Shown here in pieces: positions 18,668 to 41,895 of a DNA stretch of 64,000 nt. The number at the start of each line of letters is the position of its first letter. The stretch's first letter is position 1. The stretch is from an uncultured Lacrimispora sp. (GTDB lineage: Bacteria > Bacillota > Clostridia > Lachnospirales > Lachnospiraceae). The notes under the pieces are model-generated. The model did no database searches. It had not been told where the DNA came from and worked only from the letters and a program-made list of their open reading frames with translations. The stretch lies in NCBI GenBank assembly GCA_964402355.1, contig CAYOCB010000019.1, positions 9,684 through 73,683 of the forward strand, read 5' to 3'. Both the position numbers and the translations under genes were made by a program.

Positions 18668-20032
18668 TCACTTTTTCATCATACTTTTTACTGTATCAAT
18701 TAACGCCTGCTTACTTGGAATAATTGATACGAATTTGGGTTCTCCATTGATTACCATTGTAGGAAGATTTGGAATTTTCATTTTCTTTGTTCTCGCAATA
18801 TCTTCCTTGTTGTTATAACGATAAACAACATAATCAGCAATATCGCTAATCTCATCAAATATATCAGTTACACTATGTACCATATATGTACAGGCTGCAC
18901 ACTGGTCCGGATCAAGTGTAAATAATTCAATAAGTACCTTATCAAGATGTTCATAATCAGGGATTATAATATCATCAAGATTATCCTCTGCTGCCTCGTA
19001 ATTCTTGACCATTTCACGTACATCAGCCGTATGTAGAACTGCCTGTGAAACAGCTACTGTATTTTCAATGGGCACATCATATGGCATATCACAGCCAGGA
19101 CTCAGAATATAATTCTTATTACTGTTTACGCTGTCGATCAGATCGATGACACACTTCATATTATCCTGCTGTGTTCCGAAAAGCATGGTAGTCGTCAATG
19201 GAATATTACCACCCATAACAATATTAAACTGATCGGTTACTTCCTTAGCTTTCACGATATCCACATTCTCATCAATATGAATGGAATCCGGATTTGTATC
19301 ACACATTACCTTAATCTGACTGGTTGCATTTCCACATACGAAGAATGCAGAAAATACTCCTTTTGACCGGATGTGGTCAAAGACCTCCCTAAAAGAACTG
19401 CCAAGCTGTTCTTCAAATGTTTCAGGTGAGACTTGGCTTACAAGCGGGTCTACAACGGCTATGACATCCATTCCTGCTTCCATATAATAGTCGCACATTT
19501 TGATTGCAACCTTGGTACAGAATTCCATAATCCCTTTTACATATTCCTTGTCTAAAAACATATCTGTAAAGAGATTGCTTCCTCTTAAATGAGAAGCAAG
19601 CGTTAACGGACCACAGATCAAGCCGTATAATGCTGTATCATCCCCTATGGACTTTTTTATTCGTTCCATTGTCCTCAGTATCATTGGAATACGACCTGAC
19701 TCTCTAGTTGGTATCTTATCATCTGATGGCCAGCCGCTTCCATCTGCCATATAGGGATGCTTTCTTACGGATGGCGGATTATTCTCTGCCCACAGCAGCT
19801 TACAGCCAAGTATTTCTGCTTCTACCTGTAAATCAAACAATACCGGCATGCCATCCGGACGATACAGCTTATGGACTTCCATCAGAGATTCATATAATTT
19901 ATCCTCATCAAGCAGAATTTCTTTTGCTGTATATCCTTTTAGCTTTCCCGCATGTACACCTGCAAATGGTACCCATGGTGTTCTTTCTGTTTCTTCATGT
20001 CTTAATGATTGAAAGATTATCTCTTTTCCCAT
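18668..20032 (-). CDS. MtaA/CmuA (URO-D superfamily) methyltransferase with C-terminal thioredoxin-like domain
   Basis: DL.VEAE.LG, GP.TLA..LRG, VCGN, GNI, ILSPGCD; C-terminal IELFT....QCAAC..M...NLPT..ING. Confidence 0.85.
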   Translation of the reverse strand: MGKEIIFQSLRHEETERTPWVPFAGVHAGKLKGYTAKEILLDEDKLYESLMEVHKLYRPDGMPVLFDLQVEAEILGCKLLWAENNPPSVRKHPYMADGSGWPSDDKIPTRESGRIPMILRTMERIKKSIGDDTALYGLICGPLTLASHLRGSNLFTDMFLDKEYVKGIMEFCTKVAIKMCDYYMEAGMDVIAVVDPLVSQVSPETFEEQLGSSFREVFDHIRSKGVFSAFFVCGNATSQIKVMCDTNPDSIHIDENVDIVKAKEVTDQFNIVMGGNIPLTTTMLFGTQQDNMKCVIDLIDSVNSNKNYILSPGCDMPYDVPIENTVAVSQAVLHTADVREMVKNYEAAEDNLDDIIIPDYEHLDKVLIELFTLDPDQCAACTYMVHSVTDIFDEISDIADYVVYRYNNKEDIARTKKMKIPNLPTMVINGEPKFVSIIPSKQALIDTVKSMMKK

Positions 20033-20072
20033 TTTTATCCTCCATAATATTTGTTATTATAAATATATACAA

Positions 20073-20711
20073 TTATCCATTGCAAAGCTTTGCTGCAAGT
20101 TCCACAGCGGAAGGAGCATTTGTACTATATCCGTCAGCGCCAATCTGATCTGCGAACTTCTGGTTAACAGGAGCACCGCCGACCATTACCCGGACCTTAT
20201 CTCTTAATCCTGCTTCTTCCAAAGCTTCAATGGTATCTTTCATTGCATACATGGTTGTGGTGAGCATTGCGGACATACCAACGATTTGAGCATCTTCATT
20301 TTCCTGTACAGCATCTACGATATCTTCCGGATCAACATCCATTCCTAAGTCGATCACTTCAAATCCTGCACTCTCAAGTAAGAGCACAACTAAGTTCTTA
20401 CCAATATCGTGCATATCTCCGGCGACTGTTGCAAAAATTGCCTTACCTGCTTTTTTCTCATCACCAGCCATTAATAATGGCTTAATTTTTGCAACACCAG
20501 ACTTCATTGCTTTTGAAGCAATTAATAATTCCGGAACAAATATTTCTCCGACTCTGAATTTCTCACCTAATACATTGATTGGTGCGACTAAGCCTTCGTT
20601 TAAAATATCCAGTGCTGAATTTCCTTCCTCCAATGCTGCATCAACAGCAGGTAATACACCTGTAACATTTCCTTCTTCAACAATCTTTGCCAGTTCAGAT
20701 AATTTTGACAT
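20073..20711 (-). CDS. Methyltransferase cognate corrinoid protein (copy 1)
   Basis: B12-binding GDMHDIGKNLV, SAML, VMVGGAP; cap domain FVPELL. Confidence 0.95.
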   Translation of the reverse strand: MSKLSELAKIVEEGNVTGVLPAVDAALEEGNSALDILNEGLVAPINVLGEKFRVGEIFVPELLIASKAMKSGVAKIKPLLMAGDEKKAGKAIFATVAGDMHDIGKNLVVLLLESAGFEVIDLGMDVDPEDIVDAVQENEDAQIVGMSAMLTTTMYAMKDTIEALEEAGLRDKVRVMVGGAPVNQKFADQIGADGYSTNAPSAVELAAKLCNG

Positions 20712-20969
20712 CACAAATCCTCCTTATCATCGTTGTTTTTTGTAAAAATAAGATCCCCTCAGACATTATGCTATTAGTTTAAACTTCAATATTTATTTTG
20801 TCAAAATAAATATTATTAAAGTTTAAATAGAACGATATCAGGTTCTTGCAATGTTACAAATTCAATATTTGGAACTATTCATATGGCGTTTCAACCAATT
20901 CTCTGAAATTTATTACATTTTCTGATTTATTCAATACAGACAATATAAGTGTATAATCGAAAAACGCTG

Positions 20970-21270
20970 CTAGTTGTTCTTTTGATTTTGAAATATCTTG
21001 ATCTGAATACATTGCTCGATCATCGAAACACAGCCGTTGTCTTTCAGCGTCTGACTATTCAAAATAATATCGTAATTTCTTCATAACGCCGCCACGTAAC
21101 TTCTCATCGACTTTATTAAACAAAGCTTCTGATATACCACTTTCCATAGATGCCATCTGCAGAATTTCATCCTCATAGCATGGAATTCCCAGTTTACTCC
21201 CTAAAATATCCCCTATTCTTTTTCCTCCACTGCCATATCCCCTGGCAATCGTTACAATATAATTATCCAT
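20970..21270 (-). pseudogene. Cytidylate kinase-like protein, internally deleted
   Basis: N-terminus IVTIARGYGSGG..IG..L joined out of frame to C-terminal NYDIILNSQTL...CV..I (stop at 20972-20970). Confidence 0.8.
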
Positions 21271-21397
21271 TTTTCTCCCTTCCGCGAAAAAAATCTACAA
21301 TTAAATGATGAAGGTAAAAGAGCAAGCGAAAAACAATAAAGTAATTGTATTTTCATCTTGCCCTTATATGTTTTCAAATTATTTCCTGTCTTAATAT

Positions 21398-22867
21398 TTA
21401 TTTACTTTCTTTTTCAGCAGCTGCCTTATCAGCAGCAATTAAGATATCCTCAACAGCCTTATCCTGCACTGGTGTCAGTGGCTTTGGAACATAATTTTCA
21501 ATAATGTCAATTGTTCTTGTCTTTACACGCTGTTCAAATGTGGTTGCTCCAGCCTTCTTCCAGTTGTCATAATCAGCTCTGTCTGTTAAGTCTGGCTGCC
21601 ACATTTCTTTATTATATTCAAGGGTATGTTCCTCCATTAAGTAATGGCCTTTCGGTCCTACTCTCTTCATAACATCCATTGCAAGATGTTCTTTATCAAA
21701 CTGGACACCATCAAATACTCTTCTCATTTGGCCGATTGTTTCATTGGAAGCTACCAGTAATTCATAGGAGAAGGTAAGTCCATAGTTCATAAATCCCACA
21801 TCATGATTCAGATTGGTTCCAGAGAAACCAATGGAATAAATGTATTGAGCAGACTCGTTCATTGCCTGTGCATCAAATACCTTGCCGCCGGAACATCCGG
21901 TGAAGCCCCATGTAGGAACTTTATATAATTCACGGCCAATCTGAGCAAGTGAAATATTATTAACAATTGCTTCCGGTGAACAGTAAGTAGGCTGCATACA
22001 TTTAAGATCCATATTATACATGGAACCGCCAAATACAATTGGTGAACCTGGATGTGCAAGCTGATGTATTACAAGTCCTGCAAGGCATTCTGCATTTGCC
22101 TGAACAATTGCTCCGGCATTTGTTATAGGACCTGTAGCACCAGGCATCATACAAGGGGAATAGTTTGTAGGCAGTTGGTTCTCTGCACAATAAATCAGCT
22201 TATCAACAGCATCATAGCAATGTGTCAAAGGAGAAATTGGTTCATTATACATAATGAACAATGGTTTCTTTGCAAGTTCTTCAAGGTTTCCTCTTATGGC
22301 AACTGCCATTTTTGTAATATTAGCAATGGACTCTCTGTTTGCAGCTGTTACTACCTGGGGTTTCGTAGAGTTACGAAGCATTACGGCATATTGATGTTCA
22401 TAGGATGTTACAGGATAATCATACATTAATCCACAGCACATTAAAAAATCCATCTCTGGCAGGGCATCGATGATTTTAGCACCATCTTCCATATCCTTAT
22501 ATGTAAAAGTCCGATGCTCTCCGGTATAAACATCAAGAATCGTAGGGCAGTCAGAACCTGTTCCATAGTAAACATTTCTACCGCCTAAATCCATTGCAAG
22601 ATCTCCATCCCGATCGTATACATGGAAATGTGACGGTGCTTGTCTTGCAGCCCATTCAACCAATCCTGCCGGGAAAAATACTTTCTTGCCTTTTACGCTG
22701 CATCCGGCTTTCTTAAGCATTTCTCTTGCACCCTCATGGTCAATAATACTTCCAACTTCCTGAAGCAGTTCAAGTGTCTTTGAATGGATTTCTTCCATTT
22801 CCTGCTGGGTCAAAAATCTCAAAGGGGCTGCTGCTTTTAACACGTTATTCTTATCTGATCTATCCAT
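21398..22867 (-). CDS. Non-pyrrolysine MttB-family methyltransferase (Cys at Pyl-equivalent site)
   Basis: YYGTGSD, EPISPL, GATGPIT.AG...ANAE, TWGFTGCSGGK.FDAQA, HDVG, VGP.GHYL. Confidence 0.92.
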   Translation of the reverse strand: MDRSDKNNVLKAAAPLRFLTQQEMEEIHSKTLELLQEVGSIIDHEGAREMLKKAGCSVKGKKVFFPAGLVEWAARQAPSHFHVYDRDGDLAMDLGGRNVYYGTGSDCPTILDVYTGEHRTFTYKDMEDGAKIIDALPEMDFLMCCGLMYDYPVTSYEHQYAVMLRNSTKPQVVTAANRESIANITKMAVAIRGNLEELAKKPLFIMYNEPISPLTHCYDAVDKLIYCAENQLPTNYSPCMMPGATGPITNAGAIVQANAECLAGLVIHQLAHPGSPIVFGGSMYNMDLKCMQPTYCSPEAIVNNISLAQIGRELYKVPTWGFTGCSGGKVFDAQAMNESAQYIYSIGFSGTNLNHDVGFMNYGLTFSYELLVASNETIGQMRRVFDGVQFDKEHLAMDVMKRVGPKGHYLMEEHTLEYNKEMWQPDLTDRADYDNWKKAGATTFEQRVKTRTIDIIENYVPKPLTPVQDKAVEDILIAADKAAAEKESK

Positions 22868-22950
22868 GATCGTTTCCTCCGATTATTTCCGGCAGTTTTC
22901 AATACTGCCAGATATATATTTTATATAAGATACTTTATTATCAGGGGCTG

Positions 22951-23589
22951 TTATTCGGTACAAAGTTTTGTTGCAAGTTCTACAGCGGAAGGAGCATTTG
23001 TACTGTATCCGTCAGCGCCGATCTGATCTGCGAACTTCTGATTAACAGGAGCTCCGCCAACCATTACCCTAACCTTATCTCTTAATCCGGCTTCTTCCAA
23101 TGCTTCAATGGTATCTTTCATTGCATACATGGTGGTCGTGAGCATAGCGGACATACCAACAATTTGAGCATCTTCATTTTCCTGTACAGCATCTACGATG
23201 TCTTCCGGATCAACATCCATTCCTAAATCAATTACTTCAAATCCTGCACTCTCAAGTAACAGCACAACTAAGTTCTTACCGATATCATGCATATCGCCTG
23301 CGACTGTTGCAAAAATTGCCTTGCCTGCTTTTTTCTCATCACCAGCCATTAATAATGGCTTAATCTTTGCAACACCAGACTTCATTGCCTTTGAAGCAAT
23401 TAATAATTCCGGAACAAATATTTCTCCGACTCTGAATTTCTCACCTAATACGTTAATTGGTGCGACTAAGCCTTCGTTTAAAATATCCAGCGCTGAAATT
23501 CCTTCCTCCAATGCTGCTTCAACAGCAGGTAATACGCCTGCAACATTTCCTTCTTCAACAATTTTTGCTAATTCAGATAATTTTGACAT
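22951..23589 (-). CDS. Methyltransferase cognate corrinoid protein (copy 2)
   Basis: DMHDIG motif; differs from copy 1 at 6 of 212 residues. Confidence 0.95.
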   Translation of the reverse strand: MSKLSELAKIVEEGNVAGVLPAVEAALEEGISALDILNEGLVAPINVLGEKFRVGEIFVPELLIASKAMKSGVAKIKPLLMAGDEKKAGKAIFATVAGDMHDIGKNLVVLLLESAGFEVIDLGMDVDPEDIVDAVQENEDAQIVGMSAMLTTTMYAMKDTIEALEEAGLRDKVRVMVGGAPVNQKFADQIGADGYSTNAPSAVELATKLCTE

Positions 23590-24086
23590 ATAAATAATCC
23601 TCCTCTAATTTTGTCCCATACACTGCGTACTGCATGAGTTTTATTAACTAACTCTCTCAAAGTTTAGTACATTTTAATCTACAAAACAGTCATTGTCAAA
23701 GGCGGTAAAGTTTCATTAAAATAAACTATCTTTTTATTTGTTTTCTTTCTAGGAAATTATTATGATGATTCTATAATTTTATAGATTATTTTATAATTAA
23801 TAATTAAAAATTCATTTTTTATAATATTTTAAAGAAACATAAATTTATGATTTTGTTTGAAAGTTTTTGTCTTTAATATGTAAGATAAATTTATATAATT
23901 CTAAAAGAGACAGCTTTTTGATTTTTGTATAATTTATTAAAAATTTAGTTAATATTTTTAGTAAGCAGAGCATCAAAATGGACATCTGTACAGGTAAAAA
24001 CTTTATTGAATATTGTCTTATTTTGTGCTATAATACATCTTATTTAAGGTATTCTTTAATTAAATATTCTTTGATGGAGGTTATAT

Positions 24087-24809
24087 TTGGAAAAAGAATC
24101 TATTTCAAAATTTGTAGGAAGAAAAATAAAATTTTTCCGGAAACAAAAAGGGTTATCCCTTGAGGCCCTGGCTTTCATGATTAATAAGAATAAATCAACG
24201 TTATCGAAATACGAGAACGGGGCCATCTCTATTGATGTAGAGACACTTCTGGATATTTCCCGAAGTCTCAATGTGGACATAACTAATTTTATCGATTATA
24301 AGGTTGACGGATCCTCTCATCGTGTTTTTTCATCCAACCCTTTCAAAAGCAATGAGTTATATCTTTATTATTACGATGGAAGAAAAAAAAATATCGTTAA
24401 ATCAGTATTGGTATTATTACCTCCTAACAAAATAGGTGCTTCGCAAAAAGCATACTTTTATATGGATGTCCCTTCCATGAAAGAATATGAAAAATGTCGT
24501 TTCTATTACATTGGTGAAATGAATGCATTTGATCTGGTTACTTATCTAACCCTGTTGAATCAGACAAATCCTATGGAACAGCTGGGAATGTGCATTCTTA
24601 ATTCTTTTGATATTAACCAAACTGCATCTACCTGGGGATTTATGTTTGGAATATCCTATAATCCAGTAGCCCCATTCTCACTAAAGTTTTTATTATCAAC
24701 TAGAATATTGACGAATGCTGAGATTAATGTTGATGATTTATTTATTACTAAAGAAGAGTTAAAAACACTGAAGCATTACAATATGATGCTCCTGAATCAT
24801 AATCAGTGA
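24087..24809 (+). CDS. XRE-family HTH transcriptional regulator
   Basis: IK.FRK.KGLSLE.LA..I.K.KSTLSKYENG; TTG start after GGAGG; uncharacterised C-terminal domain. Confidence 0.9.
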   Translation: MEKESISKFVGRKIKFFRKQKGLSLEALAFMINKNKSTLSKYENGAISIDVETLLDISRSLNVDITNFIDYKVDGSSHRVFSSNPFKSNELYLYYYDGRKKNIVKSVLVLLPPNKIGASQKAYFYMDVPSMKEYEKCRFYYIGEMNAFDLVTYLTLLNQTNPMEQLGMCILNSFDINQTASTWGFMFGISYNPVAPFSLKFLLSTRILTNAEINVDDLFITKEELKTLKHYNMMLLNHNQ

Positions 24810-25219
24810 ATTAATCACATTACATACCGATCCTGACTGCTGTTCATGATATACATGCTTCCCTCTGGGAACAGCAGTTTGGAAGGATTGTATGCCACTA
24901 CTCTCTGCTTTTCTTTTTTTTATTCTTTTTATTTGTTTTTTTATAGTCTGCTATTAATATGAATTCTATATTTTCCCCAAAAGTTATAAAATTTTCAAAG
25001 TTCATTCCAAGGTGAAAAACGTTTTTGTTTTTTCATTTTTTATTTTTTTATATTTGATTTCATGTCATATTTATCAAATTTTAGCAATCTGGTGAAACTT
25101 TTTCTCATTTAATGACTCATTATACGATTTGACTAACAATAAAAATATTATTATAATTTATACCACTCAGTTATATATTTCTTATTTAATCAAATAACGT
25201 CTGAAGGAGAAATTTTATT

Positions 25220-26686
25220 ATGAAAAAACACTCGTCATCACAATTCATGGGTAAAAACGGATTGACCTTTTTTACCAAACAGGATATGGAAAAGATTCAT
25301 AGTGCTACCCTGCAGCTTCTGGAGGAAGTTGGATGTGAGGTTCAATATGCACCTGCACTTGATAAATTAAAGGAAGCCGGTGCTTTTGTTCAAAAGAAAC
25401 GAGTTAAATTTCCACCGACACTTGTTGAATGGGCAATCAGACAGGCACCTTCAAGAATCAATCTCTACGACAGAGATGGTAATTTTGCAATGGATTGCAG
25501 CGGCAGGAACGCATATTACGGCGTTGGCTCTGCATGTCCTAACATCCTTGACAGCTATACGGGAGAACACAGACTCTGTAATGAAGAAGACAACAAAAAC
25601 TGCGTTAAGGTTGCCGACGCAATGCCATATATTGATTATATGATGTCAATGGCTCAGGTTTATAACCATCCCAAAACTTCTTATGAGCATGAATATTCTG
25701 CCATGATTCGTTATAGTTCAAAACCACAGGTTGTTATTACCGCTGATCTGGAATCTACGAAAAATGTTGTGGAAATGGCTTCGATCGCAAGAGGCGGATT
25801 AGATAAGCTTCAGGAAAAACCGTTATTTATTCTGTATTGTGAGCCAACGTCTCCAATGGTGTGTACGAAGGAATCCATGGAAAAAGTAATGTACTCTGCC
25901 GAAACAGGTATTCCTGTTTTGTACGCACCAATCCCTATGAATGGTGCAACCGGACCAATGCCGCTTGCTTCCTGCATCATACAGGCCAATGCAGAATGTC
26001 TGGCAGGATTAATCGTCGCTCAGGTTACCAAACCTGGTGCGCCTTTCTTATATGGTGCTATCATAACGAATATGGATATGAGAAGTCTGCAGCCTACATA
26101 TGCTTCCCCGGAAACGATGATTGAATCTCTCGCAATGTCAGAAATCGGACGTGAATTATACCACTTGCCAACATGGGGTACCGCTGGCTGTACAAGTTCT
26201 AAGCTTGCTGACGAACAGGCCGTTCTAGAAGGATCACAATACATAACGCTTGCAGGTCTTTCTGGCGCTAATGTTATTCATGATGTTGGATACACTACAT
26301 TTGGACTCACATTTTCTCTTGACCTTGTTATTATGATGAATGATGTAATCGGACGTGTACGTCGTTTCTTCGACAGCGTAAAGATGGATGACGAGCATAT
26401 CAGTATGAACGAAGATCTTCTCGCTGTTGGTCCCAAAGGACATTATCTTGGTCAAAACTCCACTCTTGTACTGAACAAAGGATATTGGGAATCAAAGCTT
26501 GAAGACAGAAATGAATTCGACAGATGGTCTGCACTTGGATCAAAATCAATGGGACAACGTGCAAATGAGATTGTAAGGGATATCATTGAAAATCAACCGC
26601 TTAACATGCTTCCTCCTGAAATTGATGCACAGATAGTTGAATTAATAGACCGCATTGATAAAAAGGAAACTGCTTCCATGGAGTAA
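25220..26686 (+). CDS. Non-pyrrolysine MttB-family methyltransferase (Cys at Pyl-equivalent site)
   Basis: YYGVGS, EPTSP, GATGP...A....ANAE, TWGTAGCTSSK.ADEQA, HDVG; clear paralog of 21398-22867. Confidence 0.92.
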   Translation: MKKHSSSQFMGKNGLTFFTKQDMEKIHSATLQLLEEVGCEVQYAPALDKLKEAGAFVQKKRVKFPPTLVEWAIRQAPSRINLYDRDGNFAMDCSGRNAYYGVGSACPNILDSYTGEHRLCNEEDNKNCVKVADAMPYIDYMMSMAQVYNHPKTSYEHEYSAMIRYSSKPQVVITADLESTKNVVEMASIARGGLDKLQEKPLFILYCEPTSPMVCTKESMEKVMYSAETGIPVLYAPIPMNGATGPMPLASCIIQANAECLAGLIVAQVTKPGAPFLYGAIITNMDMRSLQPTYASPETMIESLAMSEIGRELYHLPTWGTAGCTSSKLADEQAVLEGSQYITLAGLSGANVIHDVGYTTFGLTFSLDLVIMMNDVIGRVRRFFDSVKMDDEHISMNEDLLAVGPKGHYLGQNSTLVLNKGYWESKLEDRNEFDRWSALGSKSMGQRANEIVRDIIENQPLNMLPPEIDAQIVELIDRIDKKETASME

Positions 26687-26741
26687 TTTTTCTGATCAAA
26701 ATTAATATTTGCATCAAAATAATATTTGTATCAAAAATATA

Positions 26742-26784
26742 AAAAAGAATGCGAAAAATATTTACCATTTTTCGCATTCTTTTT
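26742..26784 (+). terminator. Intrinsic terminator after mttB; target of intron insertion
   Basis: AAAAAGAATGCGAAAAAT-ATTTACC-ATTTTTCGCATTCTTTTT perfect 18-bp stem. Confidence 0.9.
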
Positions 26785-26991
26785 CCTGTGTGCCAGGTAT
26801 GGCACAATCTAGCGAGTGAAAGTATAGCCACGGGTATTTACTGCCAAGTGTAGTGAACCACAAGTTGGTATCAGTAATGGTATAGATGAAGGAAGTGGTG
26901 TAGCAAAATTCTTGAGCCTACGGAGACCCTACCCACATATCAAAAGCACTATTAACTGTTGTAGTTCCAGATGATGTTGGTGCATAACTTG

Positions 26992-27591
26992 TTAGTTCTT
27001 TCCGCCATAGTTTTTGTATGTAGCATATACTGCATCTGCATATTGATCTGCCAGAATTGGGCGTCCATATGAGTCTGTGCAGCCAGGATACCAGTTTGGT
27101 CCTCCATTATAATGCAATAAACCATTGTATATATTACCAAACTGTTTTATATTATCGTTTATAATCATAGCGCCCATATATACTTGATCTTGATAATCAC
27201 CATGATTATAAGCATGTCCATATGTTGAACGGAACTCACCTGAATAAGCATTTCTAGTGTTTGGCTCTACTTGCATTAATCCATCACCAGCAGATGGACT
27301 ACCACCATTTAAAGCTGCGCCAAAGTCACTTTCTTTTTTGATAACAGCGCATACTAATAAAGCAAAATCTCCATTTTCAGCAAATTTGTTATTAGCGTTA
27401 ATTGCATATTCCCATATATCATTTGGAACTTCACCAGGTTTTGATACTGATGGGTTTGCTGAGTTAGTTGTATTCGCTGGTGTTATAGCTGCATTGGCAA
27501 TTACAGTGGATGAGTTTGTTATTACTATCATAGTTAGTAGCCCAAGTACTAAAGAGAAAGTAATTAATTTTTTTGGTTTTTCGTGTTTCAT
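26992..27591 (-). CDS. Secreted GH23 (goose-lysozyme/SLT fold) glycoside hydrolase, Ralstonia ChiC-like chitinase
   Basis: Signal peptide; AVIKKESDFG (catalytic Glu), SPSAGDGLMQVEPNTRNAY, GLLHYNGG..WYPG.TDSYGRPILADQYA recalled from the Ra-ChiC catalytic domain. Confidence 0.8.
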   Translation of the reverse strand: MKHEKPKKLITFSLVLGLLTMIVITNSSTVIANAAITPANTTNSANPSVSKPGEVPNDIWEYAINANNKFAENGDFALLVCAVIKKESDFGAALNGGSPSAGDGLMQVEPNTRNAYSGEFRSTYGHAYNHGDYQDQVYMGAMIINDNIKQFGNIYNGLLHYNGGPNWYPGCTDSYGRPILADQYADAVYATYKNYGGKN

Positions 27592-27939
27592 AATAAATCA
27601 GCTCCTTTTCTAAATTTTATGGAAGGATTATAAGGCACATTCACCTACTAAGTTTTATTAAATTTGGAGTGAATATAACTTACAATCCTTTTATTTTAAG
27701 GCTCAATAGAGTCAAAAAATCAGGATTATACTACAGGTAATATAAAGATTTTGTTATTTTTTAAAATTAGTTTGATTACCATCCAAGCTAAAATTGAAAT
27801 CTATAAATTCGAAAAGAATAATGTTTTTCGGTGAAATAAATTTAATTTTTATGATCTACACAAATTTAGACCACTATCCTATAAAAAGTGTATTTTAAAT
27901 AATATTTCAATTTTTATATTTTGTTCATTGTAATATAAA

Positions 27940-28021
27940 TACACTTGTTTTGTAAATGAAAAATTTTATTAACATTTATCTACACTTGTTTTGTAAATGA
28001 AATTTTTTATTAATATTTATC
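27940..28021. repeat. 41-bp tandem duplication
   Basis: TACACTTGTTTTGTAAATGAAA...TTTATTAA.ATTTATC at 27940-27980 and 27981-28021. Confidence 0.92.
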
Positions 28022-28131
28022 AAATTTTTGTTAATCAGAGCCGCCCCTGTTGACACATAGTGAGCAAGTCATTCTAGTTGAAGGAAATAGCATTTTTATC
28101 ATCTTTTTGGAATAACGCTATCTTTTAAAGC

Positions 28132-28227
28132 GGTTACTTAAATCCTACACTGCTTGAAACAAAAATAAAGGACGGAGCTGGTTTGCTCAATCCTTTAAAT
28201 TATTATCTAAGAAAAGTTGGAATATAA
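28132..28227 (+). pseudogene. C-terminal remnant of intron RT/maturase
   Basis: Reads GYLNPTLLETKIKDGAGLLNPLNYYLRKVGI* and stops 6 nt before domain V, where intron ORFs end. Confidence 0.65.
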
Positions 28228-28343
28228 ATTGCAGAGCCGTATATGAGATCCGTACATACGGTTCAATGAGAGGGAAATAATTCTTAGTAATTATTTCTCT
28301 ACTCTATTTTATAAAGCATGGTTTATTCTACTTTTATGAAATG

Positions 28344-29078
28344 TTATTTTTCATTATTCAAAAAAAACAAATTCATATGTCTGAATCGATTAAACTCTTC
28401 TTTCGTTATCATCATTTCTTTTTTAACCAGATCTTCATCCCTGATAATTTCCGTTGATATAATTACCTTTGTTACATAAGGTGCAATCGGATTTGCAAGG
28501 AGCGCAATTAAGATGCCATATGTCTGTGTATTCTGATGCAGAGGCTTCAGGGCACAAATCGTCAGTCGGTCCACCATATTTACCTGATTAACCAGATTAT
28601 AGTATGTAATAAGATCATATGGAAGCATAGTGCCTTCATATACATAATCACAGTCGTTAAAATCCTGGTACGATTTCAGGCCAAGATAATAATAAGCGTG
28701 AAATTTTTCATCTACACTATCATAAATTGCTTTCAGATAAGACTTTATAACCTGTTTTTTTCTTCCATCATAATAGTATATATAGATATCTTTGTTTTCG
28801 TATGTATGATCCATACTTTGATTATTTGGCAGTTTCTTAGATGACTGAATGGTTTCAGGAAAGAAAACAAGCTTGTATACCGGAACATCTAACGCTTTTG
28901 CAATGTCGGACAGTGTATCAATATCAATTGTAACGCTTCCAAGTTCATACTTTGATACGGATGACTTGCTCTTATATATCTTATTTGCCAGATCTTCAAC
29001 AGACATATTCTTTTGCCGTCTATAATTTCGTATTTTATTACCTGTCATCTTTCGAATATTATCATCTTTAGCCGCCAT
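28344..29078 (-). CDS. XRE-family HTH transcriptional regulator (paralog of 24087-24809)
   Basis: IRNYRR...SVEDLA..I.KSKSSVSKYELG; shares YYYDGRKK, DL.TY..L.NQ.N, NP.AP with paralog. Confidence 0.9.
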   Translation of the reverse strand: MAAKDDNIRKMTGNKIRNYRRQKNMSVEDLANKIYKSKSSVSKYELGSVTIDIDTLSDIAKALDVPVYKLVFFPETIQSSKKLPNNQSMDHTYENKDIYIYYYDGRKKQVIKSYLKAIYDSVDEKFHAYYYLGLKSYQDFNDCDYVYEGTMLPYDLITYYNLVNQVNMVDRLTICALKPLHQNTQTYGILIALLANPIAPYVTKVIISTEIIRDEDLVKKEMMITKEEFNRFRHMNLFFLNNEK

Positions 29079-41700: not shown

Positions 41701-41895
41701 AAAAAAAGACAGTAAACAAACGTCCACTGTCTCTGTCCTTTAACCTGAAAGATTATCAGCTGATTCTCACAACTGAATTGCCTCTTCGGTACATCATTGT
41801 TCTCCAGAGCATCGTCCAAACTAGATCCTTTTGCCTGAGAGTTTTTTGTTCACCTTCGGCGCATGTTTTTCACATGTCTCTCTCTAGTTTTTCAA
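41701..41895 (-). ncRNA. Tandem glycine riboswitch with terminator expression platform
   Basis: Aptamer 1 GAGAGAC...GCCGAAGGTG...CTCTCAGGCAAAAGGA; aptamer 2 CTCTGGAGA...CCGAAGAGGCAA...CTTTCAGG...GGACAGAG; terminator AGACAGT...ACTGTCT-T7 upstream of gcvT. Confidence 0.95.

Follow-up and report, generated by a model that had tools for sequence, protein, structure and literature searches.

A probable group IIC intron relic holding a horizontally gained chitinase gene in an uncultured Lacrimispora

The stretch of DNA analysed here (64,000 nucleotides; the window) carries at 26788..28307 what is most likely the relic of a group IIC intron together with a horizontally gained chitinase gene, rather than a novel mobile element that carries a gene. 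The intron is probably dead, its middle having later been replaced by foreign DNA through illegitimate recombination or break repair. The order of events that we infer begins with the likely insertion of a full-length IIC intron 3' of the mttB terminator. Its middle would then have been replaced, by one of these two routes, with ~1.2 kb of DNA for which a Clostridium is the likely donor. The outcome would be an intron neither splicing nor moving and a chitinase gene whose expression from a promoter of its own is predicted. A dead intron with a replaced centre was one of two readings offered in the original prediction, made from the sequence alone, and it is supported by the loss of EBS1, J2/3, domains III and IV and the reverse transcriptase (RT) and by the foreign nature of the insert.

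Anatomy of the intron shell

The features of the locus, with positions as numbered in the window, were as follows.

26742..26784, no strand: intrinsic-terminator hairpin, the IIC insertion target, 3' of an mttB-family gene
26788..26922, plus strand: IIC intron 5' piece, intron nt 1-136 with one base deleted; GTGTG and domain I 5' half
26923..26946, plus strand: second intron piece, approximately intron nt 261-284; domain I closing strand and domain II start
26947..26991, no strand: 45-nt non-intron piece at the left junction
26992..27591, minus strand: GH23 lysozyme-like chitinase gene, unbroken, 199 aa (Pfam SLT, PDB 3W6B)
27592..27853, minus strand: GH23 upstream leader with ribosome-binding site, homologous to Clostridium GH23 leaders
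27854..28137, no strand: AT-rich foreign DNA with a 41-nt tandem duplication (27924-28005)
28138..28227, plus strand: last 29 codons and stop codon of the RT/maturase (28 of 29 aa match the 447-aa RT of G463)
28234..28307, plus strand: domain V (28234-28264, AGC triad) and domain VI (RF00029, fold)

The mttB-family gene (25220-26686, a Pfam MTTB match) is followed by a perfect hairpin of 18 bp, with arms at 26742-26759 and 26767-26784, which folds at -19.6 kcal/mol (z -8.1; 0 of 200 shuffles equally good). The GTGTG 5' end of the intron was found where it had been predicted, at 26788, 3 nt past this hairpin. Since the hairpin has A/T runs on both sides, it would stop the antisense GH23 transcript too, which would end there, just past the intron 5' piece. 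An insertion into dead intron DNA behind such a two-way terminator may cost nothing, and the gene may need no terminator of its own.

The 5' piece shared 93-94% identity with the full-length G078 and G145 copies, and the second piece matched G463 at 22 of 24 nt (nhmmer E 2.9e-5). Between the two pieces ~125 nt are deleted, and EBS1 was lost with them. Intron sequence ahead of the cargo comes to 159 nt only (26788-26946), not the ~200 nt first counted. At the other end, the search with Rfam proposed for domains V and VI returned a covariance-model match, Intron_gpII (RF00029) at 28232-28307, model positions 1-77 (36.1 bits, E 5.6e-5); because this score is below the gathering score of 40, the match is absent from the gathering scan of the window. 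The two domains fold as expected (z -5.8), with the branch-point bulged A (28301) and the AT 3' end that had been described, and the changes in domain V preserve base pairing. The putative maturase tail of 31 codons was also present, as frame 28132-28224; its last 29 codons are RT, whereas its first two derive from the foreign side, and 29 of the 447 codons of the RT/maturase open reading frame (ORF) remain. The GH23 gene reported on the opposite strand between the intron ends proved to be intact. In all, the shell retains intron nt 1-136, ~261-284 and 1720-1889, that is, 329 of ~1889 nt. Point changes affected 8 of 194 invariant positions, and nine intact copies had 0-8 changes at ~200 positions; this mild point decay was counted against a later replacement of the middle.

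EBS1 was mapped by covariation to intron nt 175-179, inside the stretch that is deleted in the shell. In 15 copies its four bases could pair with the four terminal exon bases at 54 of 60 positions, whereas 10,000 shuffles averaged 31 and never exceeded 47; the related copies are not fully independent. According to PMC1702495, IBS1-EBS1 pairing is essential to IIC splicing, so that with EBS1 deleted the shell would not splice. The suspicion that domains I to III are incomplete was also correct: the 3' half of domain I is missing, and searches of the shell with motifs, Rfam and nhmmer gave no J2/3, no domain III and no domain IV. Of the proposed Rfam group-II-D1D4 match there was only a trace, 16.8 bits to the D1-D4-3 model (RF02001) at 26868-26955, compared with 112.7 bits in G145. 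As judged from what remains of it, the shell would not be a working ribozyme and is predicted neither to splice nor to move. A candidate second degraded domain III at 28050-28085 was rejected, as Rfam and nhmmer gave it no support.

The other reading in the original prediction was that of a non-autonomous intron with a chitinase passenger, dependent on an RT acting in trans for splicing and mobility. The termini, domain V and domain VI do look sound, with pairing kept in domain V, and ORF-less bacterial introns helped in trans exist (PMC4424553). Nevertheless, we consider this reading highly improbable: it is contradicted by the anatomy, with EBS1, J2/3, domain III and domain IV gone, no cognate RT is present in the shell's own 37-contig assembly, beyond which an unassembled copy may exist, and the shell is a single copy for which no second site was found. 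The sole long group II RT in that assembly (C12; 607 aa) was 41% identical over 231 aa to the RT of the family, and its intron (G000:C12:58887-60774, minus strand) is unrelated, with a different domain V. Another type of RT, of 360 aa, lies at G000:C21:43959-44531 (minus strand).

Like class C introns (B.h.I1, O.i.I1), the shell has GUGYG after a terminator hairpin, a short domain V, a bulged A in domain VI, an AY end and an RT stop just before domain V; unlike them, it is without ~1560 of 1889 nt (EBS1, J2/3, domains III-IV and RT) and holds 1191 nt of foreign DNA. By these features it would be classed as derived from a IIC intron, but neither as a functional nor as a non-autonomous one. In two sources (PMC4424553, PMC4028801), most bacterial group II intron copies are described as truncated or inactive. 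The shell resembles such truncated or deleted copies in being an inactive remnant with both termini and differs in that its deletion site is filled by foreign DNA with an unbroken gene. The same sources describe ORF-less bacterial introns as rare and reliant on a related RT in the same genome. The shell is like these in being without its own RT, but they keep the ribozyme and nearly always share the genome with a related RT (PMC4424553), and the shell does neither.

Nature and likely source of the insert

The insert (26947-28137; 1191 nt) has a GC content of 30%, compared with 42% in the genome and 39% in the window, and the GC3 of the GH23 gene is 0.21, compared with 0.29-0.36 in five neighbouring genes. 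The GH23 protein matched Pfam SLT with 34.6 bits (cut-off, 21.3) and PDB 3W6B, which we take to be Ra-ChiC of Ralstonia, over residues 36-198 (E 6e-70). Its catalytic Glu is kept, where a chain of the 3W6D type has Gln, and chitinase activity is predicted. The protein consists of a hydrophobic N-terminus, a short linker and the catalytic domain, and, as in the 200-aa form in L072, there is no carbohydrate-binding module. The N-terminus is basic and then has a hydrophobic stretch (hydropathy only), and the product is predicted to be secreted via a signal peptide.

The GH23 gene and 260 nt of its leader were 72% identical to the C. beijerinckii-type loci L072 and L076-L078, and the catalytic domain was 84-88% identical to those of Clostridium-type loci (84-86% in DNA). 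A tree was built on the last 160 residues of 33 selected rows, made up of 30 of the 97 homologs, the translations of two loci and the query. In it, the query grouped with Clostridium beijerinckii-type proteins with a support of 92/86, short of the mark for strong support (95/80). A clade with three homologs from Anaerocolumna and Mobilisporobacter, which we take to be Lachnospiraceae, was rejected (p-AU 1.8e-9). The gene was found at the DNA level in 0 of 48 other genomes of the genus, and none of 399 further scored genomes of the class had the protein at E 1e-20. The ~1.2-kb insert thus likely derives from a Clostridium. In L072 and L077, the opposite strand carries, ~360 nt ahead of the GH23 start, what by eye resembles the 5' end of another kind of group II intron; 37 nt were 81% identical to the IIC intron, and it does not enclose the GH23 gene. 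L076 and L078 have no such intron-like end and resemble the empty form.

For the 45-nt piece at the left junction two matches were found. It matched a Clostridium pgi gene in the sense direction at 28 of 29 nt (49 bits, compared with a maximum of 35.6 bits in 60 shuffles against its own genome) and, alternatively, in antisense and at 31 of 39 nt, the GH18 tail in L079, where the GH18 gene lies ahead of GH23; one of the two must be due to chance. A circular permutation of the insert, with the GH18 tail split across its ends, was rejected: its right end (28100-28137) had nothing better than E 0.2 among 44 GH18 homologs. To the right of the leader, 27854..28137 had no intron match (nhmmer --max), and a plasmid search with 27590-28140 returned three weak matches (E 3e-3). 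A promoter scan yielded 7 sites, no more than the 11.1 expected in shuffles.

An insertion of the IS or MITE type was not indicated. There was no terminal inverted repeat at 26947/28137 among the 25 longest of 45 inverted pairs and no target duplication there among the repeats listed, no transposase-sized ORF was found within the insert, and intron sequence is lost across the junction. A route at the DNA level is favoured since the insert is antisense to the intron and carries its upstream leader.

Transfer anchored by homology, in which a donor with one or more intron pieces beside GH23 recombined with a resident copy, would be one such route, intron copies common to several genera serving as landing pads. 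The 135-170 nt of homology would suffice to anchor recombination. The intron family was present in the Clostridium-genus set (G924 and G970, 87-91% identical to both ends) and at four loci in viral contigs. In that set (122 of 130 genomes scored, two candidates per genome), however, four genomes matched the gene, two others the intron ends and none both, and no genome or contig had the intron beside GH23; the ends also matched copies from the same family (93-95%) better than the Clostridium ones. None of nine loci with cargo homologs had the ends of the intron around the GH23 gene. We regard such a transfer as unlikely. Viral contigs contained no GH23 relative. A shell with GH23 cargo at other loci, for which the original prediction had called, was likewise seen nowhere else in the genomes searched, and within these the outcome is the one that the prediction had itself set against a mobile unit.

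The insertion site in reads and in a relative

In run X1, a single contig covered 25200-28167 with 0 differences and a depth of 18 (flank, 17.6); it runs from mttB through the 5' piece and the cargo and ends 30 nt within the 3' piece. No RNA run was among those listed for the locus. As X1 may be the source of the window, this checks the assembly and is not independent support; the flat depth across the element argues against misassembly. In run X2, from another study, a 15-kb contig that was ~91% identical (136 differences in 1489 nt) joined 26691 to 28341 with 76 letters in between, where exact removal of the element would leave 129. This join indicates that the relative has mttB and the XRE gene adjoining, without intron or chitinase. 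Of the empty site that the original prediction had suggested looking for (26787 joined to 28308), a relative without the element was thus found, but no base-exact junction. As the gap in X2 has 76 nt rather than 129, gain of the element rather than its loss is inferred. Partial cover inside the insert was also seen in X2 (27738-28019; depth, 5-6).

That the repeat-like intron ends caused Clostridium DNA to be stitched in during assembly might be supposed from the best-matching run, which is a sediment metagenome, and from the fact that 28168-28189 was covered only by a contig shared with the copy on C10. The single X1 contig, even in depth and free of differences over 25200-28167, and the X2 relative, in which mttB and the XRE gene are neighbours as well, make such a chimera very hard to credit.

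The surrounding cluster (window 18668-29078) comprises two genes of the trimethylamine-methyltransferase family, a near-identical pair of corrinoid-protein-like genes, one URO-D-like gene and two HTH regulators that are paralogs. A DNA search did not find this cluster in 40 relatives, yet it is present in the X2 relative. Elsewhere in the window, a tandem glycine riboswitch (Rfam RF00504; 64.8 and 35.9 bits) was found at 41731-41895 (minus strand).

The parent intron family and a second cargo-bearing shell

The same genus and family contain full-length copies of the intron, which are ~1.89 kb long and encode an RT of at most 447 aa; where the flank was seen, each has a terminator-like hairpin on its 5' side. 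The search for RT-bearing copies was thus successful in relatives (the nearest being G078, G145, G463 and G401), but not in the assembly of the shell itself. The ends of the shell were nearest to the G078 lineage (93.3% at the 5' end and 94.7% at the 3' end; G145 reached 94.1% at the 5' end), and both being nearest to one lineage is as expected from a single parent intron. A full-length query matched 67 of 400 other genomes of the family, many of them via short or distant RT pieces.

The shapes of the copies were assessed in 64 fetched stretches and three from the own genome, picked from hits and not at random. Among 22 copies with both ends, 12 were full length, eight were deleted without foreign DNA (L054, L056, L057, L069, the own C10 copy, L101, L150 and L157) and two had cargo; the remaining stretches had a single end, were cut by a contig end or gave no strong match. 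Internal deletions are thus common in the family (8 of 22), which speaks for a later replacement of the middle. The rate of cargo-bearing copies is 2 of 22, or 1 of 21 when the present, selected case is omitted.

The second cargo-bearing copy (L060:3200-4468, minus strand, that is, G329:C1:2805699-2806967) also belongs to this IIC family and follows a terminator-like hairpin; its shell consists of intron nt 1-144 and the last 125 nt around ~1 kb of foreign DNA. Where the RT would be, it carries genes for an AbrB/MazE antitoxin and a PIN toxin, in sense orientation. This shell plus cargo was not found in six other genomes of its genus. Its 5' break is within ~8 nt of that of the shell in the window, which hints at something more regular than chance, although the clustering of breaks is weak: 6 of 30 damaged copies break inside one 12-nt window (nt 136-147), with a scan P of 0.009 over nt 30-560 and of 0.39 over nt 30-180. 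A breakpoint hot spot, significant under one of these two nulls, is not claimed.

The junctions fit RT template switching equally well, which counts against replacement of the middle after insertion. The cargo would then have been captured during insertion, the IIC RT copying from the 3' end of the reverse-spliced intron RNA, jumping off onto foreign nucleic acid, then onto short pieces and returning to the intron 5' part. Such jumps would keep both termini and leave the element dead on arrival. The left junction is indeed a chain of intron 1-136, intron 261-284, the 45-nt piece and GH23, and the deleted copies L101, L150 and L157 retain the exact last 17-24 nt of the intron. Template switching of a IIC RT onto RNA or DNA in vitro is described in 10.1101/792986, whose authors propose that switching lets the IIC RT copy through nicked RNA in vivo. 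Against this, the antisense insert with its non-coding leader would have to be copied from single-stranded DNA of another genus, one retrohoming test noted in that source showed end-joining and not switching, and selection on the flanks would also preserve the termini through later deletions. Capture during insertion therefore seems to us an improbable origin of the cargo, and replacement of the middle in a resident intron is still preferred. Later replacement, template switching and anchored recombination all agree that the element is now immobile.

A broader, tentative and on the whole doubtful proposal is that IIC introns, which target terminators, are recurring points of gene capture, their middle giving way to 1-1.2 kb of foreign DNA either by RT template switching at insertion or by recombination on intron ends shared across genera. 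If this were true, complete genes, such as the chitinase in the window and the toxin-antitoxin pair of G329, would be planted at safe intergenic sites by an unrecognised route of horizontal gene gain, though every product would be immobile. Publications on IIC shells with foreign cargo were not found among the listings and beginnings of abstracts covered, which mostly exclude subscription journals. As it stands, the locus combines an ordinary fate of group II introns, decay by internal deletion, with one horizontal gain of a chitinase gene; it would matter more if the repeated pattern (the same family, a similar 5' break and other cargo in G329) reflects a mechanism.

Several other copies were observed. 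In the own genome, G000:C10:825-1102 (L003) is a 278-nt mini copy with the 5' 67 nt fused to the last ~212 nt, located 3' of the terminator of a tRNA cluster and with damaging changes in domains V and VI. A 55-nt remnant of the 5' end only, without a 3' partner in the assembly, lies behind a terminator at G000:C1:392027-392081 (minus strand); the gene before it, presumably guaA, as its end reads like it, and a convergent ABC-permease-like gene after it flank the remnant. In L101 and L150 the 5' 175 or 61 nt are fused straight to the last 17-20 nt of the intron. L058 (1249-3567) is a tandem insertion, in which an intron 5' piece (nt 2-415) directly follows a more distant RT-bearing group II intron (44% identity). 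In L061, L104, L105, L106, L107 and L109 the last 35-40 nt of the intron matched both strands at one place, suggesting either that domain VI was extended to form a longer hairpin or that it now serves as a terminator.
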